The translations under genes and the position numbers were made by a program. Of a stretch of 64,000 nucleotides of DNA, positions 7,673 through 57,325 are shown in pieces. Below the pieces are notes generated by a model. The model did no database searches. It was not told where the DNA came from and saw nothing but the letters and a program-made list of their open reading frames with translations. This DNA is from an uncultured bacterium. GTDB taxonomy: Bacteria > Auribacterota > UBA3054 > JAPLST01. How positions within the stretch are numbered: the first letter of the stretch is position 1; every line of letters starts with the position of its first letter. Where the stretch lies: the NCBI GenBank assembly GCA_964397565.1, contig CAYNJC010000007.1:5005-69004 (forward strand). The letters run 5' to 3'.

Positions 7673-8046
7673 CGCAACAGTTGTGTTTCACCATCCAAGT
7701 CAGCCACACCGTGTGCGCGGGCGGCGTGCATTATTCTCTCGGCATTGTTTGTCTTGCGGGTCCTTCGGCATATACTGATCAACATATGTTTCATAGTGAG
7801 GATAGAAGCCGCGTAGCGCTCCTCATATTCCTGCCGGTTAACGAAATAGTCCTCTGGATAATCATTGAACTGTTGGAGTTGTTCATCCGCGATCGGTTCG
7901 TAGGTCTTCCAATACAAATCCAGGCGGTCACGCAGCAACTGGGCGCGCAGGAGTCGGTTTTGGAGCCGTGTTTGGACTGCCATGAACAATACCGACATAG
8001 TCATGGTCGTAAGGATCAACAATTGAATCATATCCGAGAGGTGCAT
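7663..8046 (-). CDS. hypothetical protein with N-terminal TM helix
   Basis: 127-aa ORF in a locally lower-GC stretch (7.68-8.16 kb), with the TM segment MIQLLILTTMTMSVLFMAV. It overlaps the DUF2127 gene by 10 nt. No family recognised. Confidence 0.55.
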   Translation of the reverse strand: MHLSDMIQLLILTTMTMSVLFMAVQTRLQNRLLRAQLLRDRLDLYWKTYEPIADEQLQQFNDYPEDYFVNRQEYEERYAASILTMKHMLISICRRTRKTNNAERIMHAARAHGVADLDGETQLLRCD

Positions 8047-16372: not shown

Positions 16373-16796
16373 GCGAGTGATGGCAGAAACTGTCAGCCTG
16401 AGCCATCATAGCATGCAGCATTTTTCCAATACTTTGGCATGTTGACAGTAGTTTATCTCGCGTGGCCATATCAATATAACCGCACCTCCACGCGATAAGG
16501 ATCCAATGTTGCGTTTCCAACTGTTCGGCGTCCGCATCAGTGAGTTTCGAGATGAAGTGTGCGATGTAGTTGCGCTTGCCCCATGCTTCCGCGATTGCAG
16601 CGCCAATGGCGCGCGATGAGCGCCTCGTTTGATCGGTAAGTGAATAGACTTCCTCACGGGGAAACTCTCGTGACAGAGTAAACATATCCATGGCGAACTC
16701 TTGGCTCACTTTGTAGACGTTAAGTTCGCTAAAAGATTGTGCAAGGCGCGTGTGCATTGCCTCCGCATCTTGAATTGTATCTAACAACGGGTTCAT
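16326..16796 (-). CDS. four-helix-bundle protein (23S rRNA intervening-sequence protein family, TIGR02436-like)
   Basis: From ATG 16796: ...VYKVSQEFAMDMFTLSREFPREEVYSLTDQTRRSSRAIGAAIAEAWGKRNYIAHFISKLTDADAEQLETQHWILIAWRCGYI. The FP+EE.Y.L..Q.RR...SI..NIAEG-like core is present. Local GC is lower. The track start at 16937 would overlap rnfE and is rejected. Confidence 0.8.
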   Translation of the reverse strand: MNPLLDTIQDAEAMHTRLAQSFSELNVYKVSQEFAMDMFTLSREFPREEVYSLTDQTRRSSRAIGAAIAEAWGKRNYIAHFISKLTDADAEQLETQHWILIAWRCGYIDMATRDKLLSTCQSIGKMLHAMMAQADSFCHHSPHRRTDAPITDAPTH

Positions 16797-43498: not shown

Positions 43499-44318
43499 TC
43501 ACATGACTGCGGCCGACGTCGCCTTGGCGCTGGACTGGGCGGCGCGCGAAGGCTGGAATCCAGGATTGCAGGACGCCGTCTGCTTTCACGCGGCGGATCC
43601 GCAGGGCTTTTTCGTAGCGCGCGAGGCGGGACGGGTCGTGGGCTTTATCTCCGCCGTTGCCTACGATGCCGCCTTTGGCTTCATCGGCTTGTATATTGTG
43701 GCGCCGGATTGCCGCGGCAGGCTGGTCGGCATTCGCTTGGCCCAGCGGGCATTGGCGTATTTGGGGCAACGCATCATTGGTGTCGACGGCGTCTTGCAGA
43801 AAACGAAGAATTATGTGGCGCACGGCTTCTGTCTGCAGTGCAAAAACATTCGTCACGCCGGCGTGTTGCCGCACGCGGCCGGCAGCGCGAATGTTGTGGC
43901 GGTGCGAGAGGTGGCGTGGGACGCACTGCTGGCGTATGACCGCCGGCATTTCCCCGCGCCGCGCGCACAGTTTTTGCAGCACTGGCTGGACGCGCCAGGG
44001 CATCATGGCTACGCCTACCTACAGGCGGATGTGGTGCGCGGCTATGGGGTGGTCCGCCCGTGCCGGACGGGCTACAAACTCGGACCACTGTTTGCCGACA
44101 GCATGGCGGTTGCCGATGCGCTGGCAGGCGTGCTGGGTGTGCACACGCAGGGCGCGATGGTGTACTTCGACACACCGGACACGAATCCCGCCGCGGTTGC
44201 GCTGGCGCGCCAGTACGGCATGCAGGAAGTGTTTGCCACGGCGCGCATGTACCGTGGTGGCCTGCCGGATCTGCCAGACAACGAGATCTTTGGCATCACC
44301 AGTTTCGAGTTGGGATGA
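43485..44318 (+). CDS. GNAT family N-acetyltransferase (two-lobed, YitH-like C-terminal extension)
   Basis: GGAGGAG SD, then MLRIDHMTAADVALALDWAAREGWNPG...VGFISAV......IGLYIVAPDCRGRLVGIRL. A second acetyltransferase-like lobe follows (YKLGPLFADS...). It overlaps the SBP gene by 14 nt. Confidence 0.7.
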   Translation: MLRIDHMTAADVALALDWAAREGWNPGLQDAVCFHAADPQGFFVAREAGRVVGFISAVAYDAAFGFIGLYIVAPDCRGRLVGIRLAQRALAYLGQRIIGVDGVLQKTKNYVAHGFCLQCKNIRHAGVLPHAAGSANVVAVREVAWDALLAYDRRHFPAPRAQFLQHWLDAPGHHGYAYLQADVVRGYGVVRPCRTGYKLGPLFADSMAVADALAGVLGVHTQGAMVYFDTPDTNPAAVALARQYGMQEVFATARMYRGGLPDLPDNEIFGITSFELG

Positions 44319-44355
44319 GCATGACGCGGCGCTTTACTTTCCACGGCCAGCACGC

Positions 44356-44388
44356 TATAATGGGCGCGCCGAGTACGGCTTTTTTTTA
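44356..44388 (+). promoter_or_regulatory. possible internal promoter (-10 TATAAT) followed by short hairpin + T8 run in the only real gap of the block
   Basis: GCTATAAT (TATAAT at 44356-44361), then GCCG-AGTA-CGGC followed by TTTTTTTT (44367-44386), with the ATG at 44397. The function (promoter, attenuator or neither) is unresolved. Confidence 0.3.
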
Positions 44389-44396
44389 CAATCCTT

Positions 44397-45647
44397 ATGA
44401 TTGAGCTACAACGCACGACCGAAGAAACCTATGTGACGCTTAACGCCCGCGGGCGTCTCGATGCGGCCAGTGTCAGCACGGTCGAAGCCGAGCTCGATGA
44501 CATTGTGCGCCGCGGCCTCTATGATGTGCGGGTGGGCATGCAGGCGGTCGAGTATATCAGCTCGGCCGGCGTGCGGGTGTTGGTGAAATACTTCAAGTCG
44601 CTCAAGCAACTGGGTGGCGGCCTGCGCATCTGCGCGGCCAGCGACACGGTGTTGGCGGTGTTGCGCATGGGCGGACTGGGTGCCTTGTTCGAGCCGCCCG
44701 CGCGCCACGCGGCGCCGGCGCCGCAAGCGCCGCCCGTCACGCTCACGCGCCACACATTTGGCGACTGTAGTGTCAGCACCTATCCGCAGACGCCGGTGCA
44801 GGCAGTGGCCTGCCGTGTGATCGGGGATGCGCGCGTGCTGACCGCCGCGGCGGCGCCGGAGGTGCTGCCGCGCATTGCGATTACACGTGACCGGCTGGTG
44901 CTCGGCGTGGGCGCCTGCGGACGCGATGCCGCGGATTGCCGCCCGCGCTGCGGCGAACTGTTGGCGGTCAGCGGCGCCGTTGCATATCTGCCCACCGATG
45001 ATGACGGCACGCCCGACTACCTGCTGGCCAGCGCAACAATCCAGCCGGATGCGCATGTGTTGTACGCGCTGCAATGTGATGGCGCGCTGGGCCTGCATGC
45101 GCGCTTCGAGACGGCCGCCGGGCAACGTGGCACACCAGTCTCACAAATTGCGCAGGCGCTGCTCGATCTTTGCGCCGTCGAGCAGATCGCGTTTGTGATG
45201 ATCGCCGAATCGGCCGGCTTGATCGGCGCCGCATTGCGCCGCGCACCGACCGCGGCCGGCGGCGCGCAATTTGCGTTTCCCGATATTCGTGACTGGCTTG
45301 CGTTCACGCCGGAACATGCGCATGAGCGCGCGTTGGCCTTGGTTGTCGGCATCGTCGCGCGGGACGCGCCGGCATGCCTGCAGCCATTCCTGCGCCCGCT
45401 GGCAGCGCCGGCCGCGCTGCTGGGGCACTTGCATGCCGCCGTGTTTGATTACCGCGCCCTGCCCCAAGGTCCGCTGGCGTTGCACGCCACGGTGCATACG
45501 CTGTTCCAGGAGCAAAGCCTGCGCGGCATGCTGCATCTGCTGCATGATCCGCGGGCGATCGCCGGCGCGGGCGAGAGCATGCTGGTGCGCGGTGCGCTGT
45601 GGGCCGGTCCGCTGGGCTCGATCACCCCGGCAGAGCCCACGCGATGA
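44397..45647 (+). CDS. STAS-domain protein with ~310-aa uncharacterised C-terminal domain
   Basis: The N-terminal ~100 aa read TYVTLNARGRLDAASVSTVEAELDDIV....VRVGMQAVEYISSAGVRVLVKYFKSLKQLGGGLRICAASDTVLAVLRMGGL, the SpoIIAA/RsbV-like STAS pattern. The remainder has no motif I recognise. The stop overlaps the permease start (ATGA). Confidence 0.7.
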   Translation: MIELQRTTEETYVTLNARGRLDAASVSTVEAELDDIVRRGLYDVRVGMQAVEYISSAGVRVLVKYFKSLKQLGGGLRICAASDTVLAVLRMGGLGALFEPPARHAAPAPQAPPVTLTRHTFGDCSVSTYPQTPVQAVACRVIGDARVLTAAAAPEVLPRIAITRDRLVLGVGACGRDAADCRPRCGELLAVSGAVAYLPTDDDGTPDYLLASATIQPDAHVLYALQCDGALGLHARFETAAGQRGTPVSQIAQALLDLCAVEQIAFVMIAESAGLIGAALRRAPTAAGGAQFAFPDIRDWLAFTPEHAHERALALVVGIVARDAPACLQPFLRPLAAPAALLGHLHAAVFDYRALPQGPLALHATVHTLFQEQSLRGMLHLLHDPRAIAGAGESMLVRGALWAGPLGSITPAEPTR

Positions 45648-53069: not shown

Positions 53070-53222
53070 TGCCGACTAAGGCGGTTATCAAGGCGATTAG
53101 TCTAACAGAATCGGCAGGCAAACGCAAGAAACAAAACGCGTCGCCTGCGCTTGCATACTGCTCATCATTGTGCTACCATGGTTAATCTGCGTTGAGAAGT
53201 AACTGCTTTTGGGAGAAGAGTG

Positions 53223-53396
53223 ATGCGAACGAAAGTGATCTTATTGCTGGCAATGCTGGCGCTGTGCGCCGTGCCATGTCTGGCCGACTGGGGCCAAGCA
53301 GAATCGCAGGACTTTGCGCTGGACACAACTATTCCAGAACCGGCGCTGATTCTGGCCGCCGCACTGCCGCTCTGGCTGTTGCTGCAGCGGCTCTGA
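53223..53396 (+). CDS. 57-aa mini PEP-CTERM protein (signal peptide + ~18-aa core + PEP-CTERM sorting signal)
   Basis: Not in the ORF track (<60 aa). GGAGAAG SD, then ATG 53223: MRTKVILLLAMLALCAVPCLA-DWGQAESQDFALDTTI-PEP-ALILAAALPLWLLL-QRL*, with the stop at 53394-53396. Confidence 0.6.
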   Translation: MRTKVILLLAMLALCAVPCLADWGQAESQDFALDTTIPEPALILAAALPLWLLLQRL

Positions 53397-53557: not shown

Positions 53558-54769
53558 ATGAGACCAACCATGAAAACAACAACACCCATCACTGCCATCG
53601 CTCTGTCCCTCGCGCTGAGCGCATTCACTGCCGTGGCCGCCGTCACGGTCACCATTCCCAGCCAACCCGTCGTGTCGCCCGAGAAAATCGTGACGATCGG
53701 TTATGATTTGGCAAGTGCCAGTGCGCTGAGCAATGTTGTGGCGGTTAGCATCTCCACCAATGCCGGCGCGTCGTTTTTCAGCACCTGCACGAACTTCATC
53801 GGGGATGTGGGCAACAATGTGGCGACGGGCACGGCCAAGCAGATTCTCTGGTATGCCATGAGAGACACGTTGCCGACCAACAATTATCCCTACACGAGAG
53901 TGCGGGTGTGGGCGTCGGACAGCATGGCGCTGATCCCGGCCGGCCCGTTTCAGATGGGCACGAACAACCTGGCCTATGAATCTCAAATGACGGATGCCGG
54001 GCCGAATCACACGGTGACCCTCGGCGCGTTTTACATGGACAACTATTTGGTGACGTCGCAGCAGTGGCATGAAGTGCGCACCTGGGCGCTTGCGAATGGC
54101 TACACGTTTGGCGCTGGTTCCGGCAAAGCGGCGACGCATCCGGTGCAGACCGTCAGCTGGTATGATTGCGTCAAATGGTGCAATGCGCGCAGCCAGAAAG
54201 AAGACCTGACGCCGTGCTATTATCTGGATGCCGCTCAAACAGTCATATATAAGGCTGGTAACAGTAATGCATGGAACGATGCGGTGAAATGGACTGCGAA
54301 TGGCTATCGCTTGCCGACCGAGGCCGAATGGGAGAAAGCGGCGCGCGGCGGCGCGGTTGGCATGCGCTTCCCGTGGAGCGATGTGCAGACAATCTCGCGT
54401 GCGCAGGCGAATTATTATGGTAATACAACTTATCCATATGACTTAGGCCCGGACGGCTCCAATCCGTTGTTCACGCCGGGCGGCTCTCCCTACACCAGCC
54501 CGGCTGGGTATTTCGCGCCGAATGGCTATGGTTTGTATGACATGGCGGGGAATGTGTTTGAATGGTGCTGGGACTGGTATGGCGGCATCTACTACGCGAG
54601 TTCGCCGGCGAGTGATCCGCGCGGGCCTGCTTCTGGCACCTCTCGCGTGCTGCGCGGCGGCAGTTGGCTCAGCGGCTTCGCCTTCGACTGTCGCGTCGCG
54701 TATCGCTACGGCAACACTCCGGACGAGACGAACTACTACTTTGGCTTGCGGTGTGTGCGGGGGCTTTAG
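53558..54769 (+). CDS. secreted formylglycine-generating-enzyme (FGE-sulfatase/C-type-lectin fold) domain protein
   Basis: Signal peptide MKTTTPITAIALSLALSAFTAVAA, then a ~100-aa beta-rich N-domain, then the PF03781-type pattern MALIPAGPFQMG...GPNHTVTLGAFYMDNYLVTSQQW...THPVQTVSWYDCVKWCNA...YRLPTEAEWEKAARGG...YDMAGNVFEWCWDWY...RVLRGGSW...GLRCV. Confidence 0.85.
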   Translation: MRPTMKTTTPITAIALSLALSAFTAVAAVTVTIPSQPVVSPEKIVTIGYDLASASALSNVVAVSISTNAGASFFSTCTNFIGDVGNNVATGTAKQILWYAMRDTLPTNNYPYTRVRVWASDSMALIPAGPFQMGTNNLAYESQMTDAGPNHTVTLGAFYMDNYLVTSQQWHEVRTWALANGYTFGAGSGKAATHPVQTVSWYDCVKWCNARSQKEDLTPCYYLDAAQTVIYKAGNSNAWNDAVKWTANGYRLPTEAEWEKAARGGAVGMRFPWSDVQTISRAQANYYGNTTYPYDLGPDGSNPLFTPGGSPYTSPAGYFAPNGYGLYDMAGNVFEWCWDWYGGIYYASSPASDPRGPASGTSRVLRGGSWLSGFAFDCRVAYRYGNTPDETNYYFGLRCVRGL

Positions 54770-54797
54770 TGCAGGCTTTTGACGTCTAATGTGTAGA

Positions 54798-54822
54798 AAC
54801 TCCGTTCGCGGCGAACGGAGTT
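54798..54822. other. perfect GC-rich hairpin 29 nt downstream of the FGE-domain gene
   Basis: AACTCCGTTCG-CGG-CGAACGGAGTT: an 11-bp stem with no T-run after it. Confidence 0.7.
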
Positions 54823-54826
54823 AAGG

Positions 54827-54916
54827 TTGGGTAAACTGCCGCGCGACCAGAAGTTTCTGTTGGCTGACCGGATCGAAGTGCAGCGCAAATACAGAGACTA
54901 TATCCGACAGAAGTAA
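54827..54916 (+). pseudogene. 29-codon fragment resembling the helix-2 region of DGR accessory protein Avd (four-helix-bundle superfamily)
   Basis: (TTG)GKLPRDQKFLLADRIEVQRKYRDYIRQK*. LPRDQKFLLADRI resembles the LPRDHKF.LGDRI segment I recall from cyanobacterial Avd proteins and the FPK.E.Y.L motif of IVS proteins. An in-frame TAG lies 33 nt upstream, so only a fragment exists. Confidence 0.3.
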
Positions 54917-54947
54917 CAATACATTCTCGCGCGGCACGATACGTTAT

Positions 54948-54980
54948 AAATTCGTTCGTGCACGAACGAATTTCCTTTTT
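54948..54980 (+). terminator. intrinsic terminator-like palindrome
   Basis: AAATTCGTTCG-TGCA-CGAACGAATTT followed by CCTTTTT. It shares the CGTTCG...CGAACG core with the hairpin at 54798. Confidence 0.55.
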
Positions 54981-55036: not shown

Positions 55037-57325
55037 ATGGTAACACGACTGCCTCAGGACCCGGCCATCACGCCGGCGGTCATCGCCGACCATGGCATGA
55101 CCGCCGAAGAATATCAGCGTGCCTGCGCCATCCTCGGCCGCGAACCAAGCTACACCGAGCTCGGCATTTTCTCGGTGATGTGGTCGGAGCACTGCTCGTA
55201 CAAGAATTCGCGGCGCTTGCTGCGCTCGTTTCCGACAAGCGGCCCGCGCGTGTTGATCAAGGCCGGCGAGGAGAACGCCGGTGTGCTCGATATCGGCGAC
55301 GGTTGGGCGGTCGCGTTCAAGGTCGAATCGCACAATCATCCGTCGGCGGTCGAGCCGTTTCAAGGCGCGGCCACCGGTGTGGGCGGCATTCTGCGTGACA
55401 TTTTCACGATGGGCGCGCGGCCGGTGATCAACATGAATTCGCTGCGCTTTGGCCGGCCGGATACGGCGGCCGTGCGCCATTTGATTGACGGTGTGGTCGG
55501 CGGCATTGCCCATTACGGCAATTGCATGGGCATTCCCACCATCGGCGGCGATGTCTATTTTGACGAGACCTACGAAACAAACTGCCTGGTGAATGCCTTC
55601 AGCTTGGGCGTCATGCGCCATGAAGAATTGCAGCGCGGCTGCGCGACGGGCGTGGGTAATCCGGTGTTTTACGTCGGCGCGGCAACGGGGCGTGACGGCA
55701 TTCACGGCGCAACCTTCGCCTCGACCGAATTGACCGAGGAGTCGGAAGCCAAGCGCAGCTCGGTGCAGGTCGCCGATCCGTTCATGGAGAAACTGTTGCT
55801 CGAAGCGTGCCTTGAATTGTACAAGACCGACTTTGTGGTCGGCATTCAAGACATGGGCGCGGCCGGCTTGACCTGCAGCACCTGCGAAACGGCCTGCCGT
55901 GGCGGGAGCGGGATCGAGATTGATGTCGCCAAAGTGCCGCAACGCGAGCGCGGCATGGTGCCCTACGAAATTCTTTTGTCGGAGAGCCAGGAGCGCATGC
56001 TGGTGATTGTGCGCAAGGGCTGCGAGGCCGACGTGCAGCGCATTTTTGAGAAATGGGATTTGCACGCCGAACAGATTGGTCAGGTCACGGATGACGGCGT
56101 GATGCGCGTGAAATGGAACGGCGTGACGGTTGCGGAAATTCCGGCGCGCGACATTGCCGAGGATGCGCCACTGTACAGCCCGCCGGCGGAACGGCCTGCG
56201 TATCTGAAGACCGTGCATGCCTGGCGGCTCGACGCCGTGCCACAGCCGCGCGACCTGACGGCGGTCCTGACCACGCTGCTGGCCGAGCCGACGATTGGCA
56301 GCAAAAAGATGGTTTATCGGCGCTATGACCATATGGTGCGCACCGGCACGGTGGTGCTGCCCGGCAGTGACGCCGCGGTGTTTTGGTTGAAAGATGCCGA
56401 CAAATATCTGGCATTGTCGGCCGACTGCAACGGGCGCTACTGTTATCTGGAGCCGCGCGTGGGCGCGCGGATCGCGGTCGCGGAGAGTGCGCGCAATGTT
56501 GTCTGTTCCGGCGGCGTGCCGCTGGGTTTGACCGATTGCCTCAATTTCGGCAATCCGCTCAAGCCGGAGATTTACTGGCAACTGACCGAATGCATCGCCG
56601 GCTTGGTCGAAGCCTGCAAAATCTTTGCCACGCCAGTCACCGGTGGCAATGTGAGCTTGTACAATGAAAGCCCCGATGGCGCGATTGATCCGACGCCGCT
56701 GGTCGTGATGGTCGGGCAAATTGCCTGCGCCGAGCACATCACCACGCAGTGGTTCAAGCAGGCCGGCGACATGATTGTGGTGCTGGACGGGCGGCAGGAT
56801 GATCCGTTGCACGGTGTGGGCGGCAGCGAGTATTTGCGGCGCACGCACCAACTGAAGACCGGCACGGCGCCGGTGATGGACCTGGCCAAAGAAAAAGCGC
56901 TGCAGGACTGCTGCCTGGCGGCGATTCGCCAAGGACTGCTTGCGTCGGCCCACGACTGCGCGGAAGGCGGGCTGGCCGTCGCACTGGCTGAATGTTGCTT
57001 TACAATGCCGGCCGACCATGTGCGCGCCATGCCGGCGCCACTGGGCGCGCGGATTGATGTGGCCGAACTACGCGCCACCTGTCCGCGTCTGGACGCCTTG
57101 TTGTTTGGCGAGCAGCAGTCGCGCATCGTGGTGAGCGCTGCGCCGGCGCAGGTCGAAACGCTGCGCGCACTGGCGGCCCAACATGGCGTGGCAGCAGTGA
57201 CGCTCGGCATCGTCGGCGGCGACACACTGCAGGTTAACGATGGCAAGAAGGTGCTGATCACTGCGCCGGTCACGCAGCTTAAGCATGTGTGGGATACCGC
57301 GCTTGATAGATTCTTTGCGCACTAA
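55037..57325 (+). CDS. purL: phosphoribosylformylglycinamidine synthase subunit PurL (FGAM synthase II)
   Basis: [55 protein letters not shown] and GNP...[12 protein letters not shown] are present, at 762 aa. This is the canonical small-type PurL. Confidence 0.95.

Follow-up and report, generated by a model that had tools for sequence, protein, structure and literature searches.

The 64,000-nucleotide (nt) stretch analysed here, the window, covers positions 5005-69004 of contig C7 in a metagenome-assembled genome (MAG; G000, 4.47 Mb in 106 contigs, 89.7% complete) and contains what we consider, with a probability of about 0.8, a decayed diversity-generating retroelement (DGR) of the Avd type. 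An intact, apparently frozen target gene is followed by a 56-nt stub of the accessory gene avd, and the reverse transcriptase (RT) gene and the template repeat (TR) are gone. In an active DGR, the TR RNA is reverse-transcribed with adenine-specific errors and the resulting cDNA replaces the variable region (VR). An initial annotation, made from the letters alone, had read the site as a one-time local DGR that has lost avd, TR and RT by deletion. That proposal is supported by an adenine footprint in the VR, by an Avd relic downstream of it and by an assembly that holds neither RT nor TR; an intact homologous cassette was found elsewhere. The positions it had given for the target open reading frame (ORF), a run of NNC codons, two palindromes, a 29-codon ORF and purL were all confirmed.

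The target gene (53558..54769, plus strand) is an intact ORF of 403 amino acids (aa) ending in ...RVLRGGSWLSGFAFDCRVAYRYGNTPDETNYYFGLRCVRGL, and encodes a secreted protein in which a signal peptide and some 110 aa of N-terminal domain precede an FGE-sulfatase (C-type-lectin-like) domain; Pfam FGE-sulfatase PF03781 covers residues 121-401 (E=3.4e-52). Since NCBIfam enzyme equivalogs (GldK, PvdO, EgtB and others) score far under their own cut-offs, the protein shares the fold and is no recognisable enzyme. Homologues of it act as targets in the intact DGRs L034, L043, L148 and L151. The VR of about 130 nt (54637..54766, plus strand) aligns with a TR described below (L146:1518-1644), has NNC columns in common with seven paralogs and ends in a conserved 3′ sequence, CGGTGTGTGCGGGGGCTT. 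With its C-terminal FGE-sulfatase fold, a VR in the last ∼40 residues and an adenine footprint, the gene belongs among historical DGR targets.

The initial annotation had pointed to seven consecutive NNC codons (54668..54688, plus strand), read from the sequence, as a footprint of template AAC codons. The run is present, and the third base is C in 57.5% of the last 40 codons compared with 145 of 404 codons (36%) in the whole gene; simple arithmetic on that count gives an expectation of ∼0.2 seven-codon runs per gene, and by itself the run is not significant. On one very improbable reading, codon bias in a GC-rich genome, together with ordinary diversifying selection on a binding surface, would account for the C-rich third positions and the variable loops with no DGR ever present, in which case the downstream ORF fragment would be a chance match or a piece of a PF05635 gene. 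The footprint became decisive only with the paralogs and an external TR, both of which argue against such an origin.

Eight close paralogs, 57-73% identical in aa sequence by tblastn, are found in the genome: the window gene on C7, four on C1, two on C15 and one on C25. In a codon alignment of their C-termini, scaffold codons (CGC GTG CTG CGC GGC GGC .. TGG .. TGT CGC GTC GCG .. CGC .. CCG ..) are interleaved with hypervariable columns in which bases 1 and 2 are scrambled and base 3 remains C. At the 15 hypervariable columns of the VR the third base is C in 90/120 cases, compared with 242/632 at the 79 hypervariable columns elsewhere in these genes (Fisher p=1e-13), and the residues that NNC and NNT cannot encode (K, E, Q, M and W) number 2/120 and 83/632, respectively (p=5e-5). 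Fourfold degenerate codons of the VR carry C in 33 of 45 instances (73%) against a background of 38% (p=3e-6), and the per-position entropy is inverted, at 1.34/1.02/0.51 in the VR versus 0.80/0.73/0.99 elsewhere. Adenine mutagenesis of AAC codons yields such a pattern; ordinary divergence does not. Synonymous-site identity of the VR scaffold among the paralogs (0.70 versus 0.67 upstream) did not make a test for homogenisation decisive overall; values of 0.81-0.94 were reached only in the subgroup C7/C1a/C1b/C1c/C15a.

To write out the TR expected for the eight paralogs, the scaffold bases were kept and every scrambled position was set to A; a scan of a metagenome collection with this pattern retrieved two contigs, L146 and L147. 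L146 (JGI Ga0247841_10067637) and L148 (ENA ERZ27250635 k141_478855), both from lake metagenomes, carry a cassette here called the sister cassette; the nearest kin of the MAG itself are lake Verrucomicrobiota MAGs. L146 begins its cassette with 33 nt from the end of a target and a spacer that contains a 7-bp GC hairpin; the other parts are avd (111 aa, 110 bits on NF033474 with a cut-off of 80), an RT bearing IGNLTSQ...YVDD, and a 127-nt TR within the 3′ end of the RT gene (L146:1518-1644). On the 15-kb contig L148 the same cassette stands beside a 1489-aa CARDB+FGE target. Because the flanks of the sister cassette are 81-89% identical to contig C15 of the MAG, it comes from a related species and is not a missing piece of this genome.

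All VR counts refer to the sister TR of L146, which has 36 adenines and 91 other bases. The window VR differs from it at 20 of the 36 adenines and at 5 of the 91 other bases, plus a 3-nt insertion (p=1.8e-9). This agrees with the suggestion of the initial annotation that the C-terminus is a DGR variable region: changes concentrate on the TR adenines, so the window C-terminus is a true VR from a TR almost identical to that of the sister species. In that species the VR of the adjacent target has 23/36 adenines and 2/91 other bases changed, and that of the remote target P0003 has 22/36 and 1/91. The other VRs of this genome extend from clean to heavily altered: C15a (24/36 adenines, 2/91 others), C1b (19/36, 3/91), C1a (24/36, 5/91), C15b (24/36, 10/91), C1c (20/36, 13/91), C25 (23/36, 16/91) and C1d (26/36, 27/91).

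Two features of the window VR are not the work of homing. One is an extra TTC codon within the NNC run, placed at 54677-54679 or at 54683-54685, which neither the sister TR nor any of the remaining VRs contains. The second is a GAG codon at a template AAC. Homing cannot make the extra codon or the non-adenine changes, such as GAC to GAG, and fresh homing would erase them. Since the VR holds changes that homing would have erased, the target is, on its sequence, most likely a binding protein of fixed specificity, one of eight paralogs.

Freezing appears older still for C1d (C1:109140-110333), whose VR is near-identical, all hypervariable residues included, to that of locus L031 in the congener, although identity over the remainder of the protein is only 76%. 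The C1d VR looks as if it was frozen before the split of the two species and then conserved. The other VRs of this genome have nothing in common with their best congener matches at hypervariable positions. For the window VR an orthology or synteny comparison with the congener proved not feasible, the best congener matches being 75-79% identical. At another congener locus, L123 (G001 C481, near 24042), a VR-like end is stopped right after RVLRGGYW and continues into the flank type of other paralogs; L123 is a further broken target.

The exact target protein is present on seven contigs, and the one other contig that was read is 100% identical across 7.2 kb. Because that contig is identical throughout, consensus protein identity across assemblies tells little about rates. 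The exact 403-aa sequence is absent from the protein collection, where the gene is called from Met5.

Downstream of the target stop, the alignment of the window with L146 shows about 14 nt of homology, the loss of the hairpin and of avd codons ∼1-25, a 56-nt relic, and an end of homology after GAAGTGC. The 14 nt (54770..54783, plus strand; TGCAGGCTTTTGAC, aligned with TGTCTGCTTTTGGC of L146) are a remnant of the ancestral target-avd spacer, which also follows the remote target of the sister species in L133. The relic (54826..54881, plus strand) corresponds to codons ∼22-40 of the 111-aa sister Avd, both gene ends being lost. By blastn it is 87.5% identical in nt sequence to L146:174-229; 16 residues are identical, and KLPRDQKFLLADRIEV of the relic is the same in the L146 Avd. 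A profile hidden Markov model (HMM) was built from 120 Avd homologues and run on 127,432 stop-to-stop segments of the six-frame genome. It placed the relic, RLGKLPRDQKFLLADRIEVQ, on profile positions 27-46 with 24 bits and E=1.3e-4, the best match in the genome (next, 0.065), and no second Avd was found in the six frames. Position and strand match those of avd in L043, L146 and L151. The earlier suggestion that this ORF fragment resembles Avd is thus upheld by nt identity, HMM match, place and orientation. The match to Avd models holds for the custom HMM; Pfam and NCBIfam scans of the 29-30-aa fragment gave no family match, and it falls short of full-length NF033474 and PF22296.

Matches to PF05635, the 23S-rRNA-IVS four-helix-bundle family, number 18 in this genome, 15 of them above cut-off; they are scattered, and one lies in the window at 16413-16727. 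As a source of the fragment the 18 genes were rejected, having no similarity to it. Their number and the lack of a library family for the fragment would suit an origin without any DGR. That origin is nevertheless very improbable, given the C excess at fourfold sites of the VR, the fall of substitutions on the adenines of an independently found TR, and a fragment that is unlike all 18 genes and matches avd at the DNA level, with the location and strand expected of avd.

The relic lies within a 29-codon ORF with a TTG start (54827-54916, plus strand, from the ORF list), and the open frame with its start codon could be taken for a functional small gene, for example one encoding a truncated Avd-derived peptide. 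We regard this as highly unlikely. Only 19-20 residues are Avd-like, too few to span even a single helix of the four-helix bundle, and the tail is unrelated to Avd. The fragment occurs only in contigs of the same strain, and its sole tblastn match among the fetched loci is a full-length Avd. The fragment is a relic of Avd and not a gene.

The non-Avd tail (54882..54916, plus strand; EVQRKYRDYIRQK and a stop) has no homology with avd. Its EVQRKYRDYI weakly resembles the C-terminus EIKRKYRDYL of a GxxExxY gene at C2:33555-33800 (tblastn E=0.019), and the local alignment of the two, 22/29 nt, scores above all 2000 shuffles. As a tentative lead, the tail may be what is left of a GxxExxY-type mini-cassette at its 3′ end, and avd may have been truncated by such an insertion. 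The 3′ flank of the C2 gene carries TTGACAGG..ACATGAT units.

The initial annotation had taken a perfect 11-bp palindrome (54798..54822; stems 54798-54808 and 54812-54822, loop CGG), 28 nt past the target stop and with a DNA fold z of -4.4, for the hairpin that promotes homing. This part did not stand. The palindrome core, GTTCGCSGCGAAC, has 24 copies genome-wide and 62 with a relaxed loop (consensus AAATTCGTTCGCSGCGAACGAATTT), and the segment that contains it stands in place of the sister hairpin and the 5′ end of avd; since it belongs to a genome-wide family and sits in the segment replacing the avd 5′ end, it is not the DGR hairpin. The hairpin of the DGR family is a different one, a 7-bp GC stem, ATGGGGG-CTG-CCCCCAT, seen in L146 and after the sister remote target P0003 (L133). 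The more distant cassette L151 has ATGGGGC-GAA-GCCCCAT, a compensatory change, and in L146, L133 and L151 alike the hairpin lies ∼33-36 nt after the stop. It was not found after the sister's less clean target P0004, in the window, or after C15a of this genome.

Two more palindromes follow the relic: a degenerate one of a second family (54923..54941; AAATTCTCGCGCGGCGCGAGAATTT, 27 core copies genome-wide) and a terminator-like one (54948..54973; AAATTCGTTCG-TGCA-CGAACGAATTT, then a T-run) of the same family as 54798-54822. Both families have AAATT...AATTT ends. By sequence they look like repetitive extragenic palindromic (REP) elements; no REP-associated transposase (RAYT) was identified, no search aimed at one having been made.

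Homologous loci show what an intact arrangement looks like. Among 80 loci taken from genomes with 10-kb flanks and each scanned for RT, only L034, from Verrucomicrobia UBA6176, has an RT near the target; it is a complete DGR in which two targets lie in tandem, the accessory gene is of the HRDC type, and RT and TR are both present, the TR encoding VIRGGSWNNNAINCRSANRNNNNPEDRNNNNGFRS. L043, a contig of bog Verrucomicrobiales, has target, Avd and TR in that order, and its Avd (96.8 bits on NF033474, also a PF22296 match) contains LNKVPRDQKFVLGDRIETK. Near-identical to it are three further bog Verrucomicrobiales contigs, L143, L144 and L145, with target and Avd followed by a CLC channel gene. No RT gene lies within several kb in L143-L145; either an RT acts on them from elsewhere or they are partly decayed cassettes.

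The absence of RT and TR predicted by the initial annotation was borne out by whole-genome searches, which found neither, and they were not found in relatives. For RT, PF00078 gave no match in this genome, and regular expressions for DGR motif 4 and YxDD found none. A protein search for DGR RTs, made on this genome and 40 relatives, found none in the genome, the genus, the family or the 15 order-level genomes, and blastn with L146 gave no match to the avd 3′ part or RT in this genome. A tblastn match of a DGR RT at window 7730-7846 (E=0.036) was rejected, as it is interrupted by a stop and a plausible ORF runs over it on the opposite strand. The congener RT L025 has YVDD, matches no DGR motif expression and was set aside as a 567-aa RT of another type. 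For the TR, blastn with the VR, regular expressions for the scaffold blocks and an in-phase scan for AAC/AAT-rich windows of the assembly returned only the eight paralogs, distant FGE genes and N-rich coding stretches. At least 11 VR-like ends were counted in the congener (G001, 86% complete), in which a TR was likewise not found. The site in C15 that is syntenic with the sister cassette (44305-45550) is contiguous, holds a single PEP-CTERM gene and has no DGR parts. The genome therefore yielded no RT gene, no accessory gene and no TR/VR pair of its own, and the concentration of changes on adenines is seen only against the TR of the sister species.

A second wreck lies at C25:54178-54560 on the minus strand, downstream of the paralog C25:54831-56021 and on the same strand. 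It comprises a 46-codon relic of an HRDC accessory gene with an in-frame stop (C25:54546-54409, minus strand; tblastn E=3e-11 against the L034 accessory protein) and a 33-aa relic of an RT N-terminus (C25:54288-54190, minus strand; MKRIGNLMEAIADCDNIMRAFCSARLGKTGKGE, E=0.034). The relics are separated, and then followed, by TTGACAGG..ACATGAT repeat units. With an Avd-type relic in the window and HRDC-type relics on C25, two cassette types have been lost.

The initial annotation had also offered an alternative, that the VR is a remote one served by an RT elsewhere. The local cassette would then be dead and the VR a live target of an intact DGR, hidden in the unassembled ∼10%, or carried by a phage or plasmid outside the bin, that acts in trans on the paralogs. 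The completeness of 89.7% leaves space for such a DGR, and C15a and C1b, with 2-3/91 non-adenine mismatches, resemble active VRs. In the sister species the DGR evidently reaches one remote target or more, P0003 (1/91) among them, and up to seven remote targets are documented for Treponema (PMC5758913). This alternative is made unlikely by the lack of RT and TR in the genome, congener, family and order, and by the 3-nt insertion and GAG codon of the window VR, which homing would overwrite. The window also lacks the 7-bp GC hairpin seen after the sister's adjacent and cleanest remote targets, two cassettes are wrecked, and the sister's cassette site is empty in this genome. The string CGCGTGCTGCGCGGCGGCAAYTGGAAY... 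is proposed for recognising the template on unbinned contigs.

Several points weigh against a dead DGR. Three of the five non-adenine mismatches of the window VR are at its 3′ end, a part in which differences between VR and TR are normal; that this VR has decayed is consequently argued mainly from the insertion and one or two substitutions. C15a and C1b are as clean against the sister TR as the VRs of a species with an intact DGR, which implies that diversification here either stopped recently or continues from an unseen copy. The VR of C15a (C15:48076-49257) matches the sister TR at every non-adenine position except the extreme 3′ end, and its flank has an ordinary terminator without the 7-bp GC hairpin despite the clean VR; it may have undergone recent homing without a hairpin, or gene conversion. 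In addition, the completeness of the MAG is only 89.7%, assembly and binning of DGR loci tend to be poor, and other Verrucomicrobia (L143-L145) have cassettes without an adjacent RT.

A decayed Avd-type DGR remains the preferred reading, and the order of events may be pictured as follows. Ancestrally, as in the intact cassette of the sister species, the target would have been followed by a spacer with the 7-bp GC hairpin, avd, and an RT with the TR in its 3′ end. The TR-derived cDNA would have replaced the last ∼127 nt of the target, randomising ∼17 codons (AAC/AAT to NNC/NNT) on what is probably the ligand-binding face of the C-type-lectin-like fold. The cassette would then have been destroyed, leaving ∼56 nt from the middle of avd at 54826-54881; along with RT and TR, the hairpin and all other avd sequence, its first ∼25 codons included, would have gone. 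A REP-like palindrome apparently took their place before the stub and unrelated sequence after it, with purL next. Since the last diversification, the VR would have gained a one-codon insertion and a few non-adenine substitutions, and the eight paralog VRs would have lost contact with a template at different times. At present the locus would be inactive.

More tentatively, the genome as a whole might record a staged, element-by-element DGR extinction, with Avd-type and HRDC-type stubs, VRs that escaped at different times (2-27 non-adenine mismatches) and one VR frozen across a species split; a somatic-style diversification would have turned into a fixed germline repertoire of binding proteins. 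Within that account, small selfish units flanked by inverted repeats interrupt one of the stubs at least, the HRDC-type one. In a sharper variant, the cleanest VRs may still be rewritten by a mobile, non-chromosomal DGR.

Beyond the element, purL (55037..57325, plus strand), encoding FGAM synthase II and identified by Pfam FGAR-AT_linker, AIRS and AIRS_C on the identical contig, now adjoins the wreck and is the downstream limit of the deletion. Upstream, and outside the DGR, a small ORF of 58 aa (53220..53396, plus strand) has a signal peptide, a short core and a PEP-CTERM-like tail. Homologous small ORFs of this 58-aa type precede the C25 paralog, a distant FGE homologue on C5 and the relatives L113, L128 and L133-L136, which suggests that small ORF and FGE-family gene form a conserved two-gene unit.

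Avd-type chromosomal DGRs with FGE-sulfatase/C-type-lectin targets were surveyed by Wu et al. 2018 (PMC5758913), and the structural paradigms of such targets are Treponema TvpA and Thermus TaqVP (PMC6328139). The window locus resembles them in target fold, C-terminal VR, scaffold (RGGxW..CRxAxR..P..GFRC), AAC-rich TR giving NNC codons, ancestral target-avd-RT/TR order, and several paralogous targets, some of them remote; for DGRs with several or remote targets, as many as seven remote and eight tandem ones have been recorded (PMC5758913). It differs in that no RT or TR was found, that 20 avd codons are left, and that the VR has an insertion and non-adenine changes, as befits a dead derivative. 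With the sister cassette (L146/L148) it shares the DNA identity of the relic, 86/91 non-adenine TR positions and the first ∼14 nt of the spacer, whereas that cassette keeps its 7-bp GC hairpin, full avd, RT and TR, has the larger CARDB+FGE target, and is syntenic with C15 and not with the purL locus. The DGR of Bordetella phage BPP-1 (Mtd/Avd/TR/Brt) is similar in adenine-specific retrohoming into a C-type-lectin C-terminus, in Avd and, as far as the intact relatives are concerned, in a GC-rich VR 3′ end with a nearby hairpin; however, BPP-1 is phage-borne, while the element here is cellular with multiple paralogous targets, and the hairpin of the window is a REP-like repeat. The palindromes 54798-54822 and 54948-54973 are like REP-type extragenic palindromes in being perfect, in occurring at dozens of genomic sites and in having a common consensus, although the sequence, AAATTCGTTCGCSGCGAACGAATTT, is their own.

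Surveys of DGRs start from the reverse transcriptase, so genomes without an RT are invisible to them; remote targets are also missed in such surveys, as noted by Roux et al. (PMC8144416). The locus reveals no new mechanism and is a known kind of element, unusually well resolved. Together, the window locus, the seven paralogs and the sister cassette form a dated series of the fate of VRs after loss of the mutator, in which targets stay intact, scaffold codons drift, indels arise and accessory genes shrink to stubs. The series offers two natural experiments: one on whether binding specificities generated by a DGR become fixed, and the other on the flanking elements of homing-competent targets, where, in the sister species, the 7-bp GC hairpin goes with the cleanest VRs.

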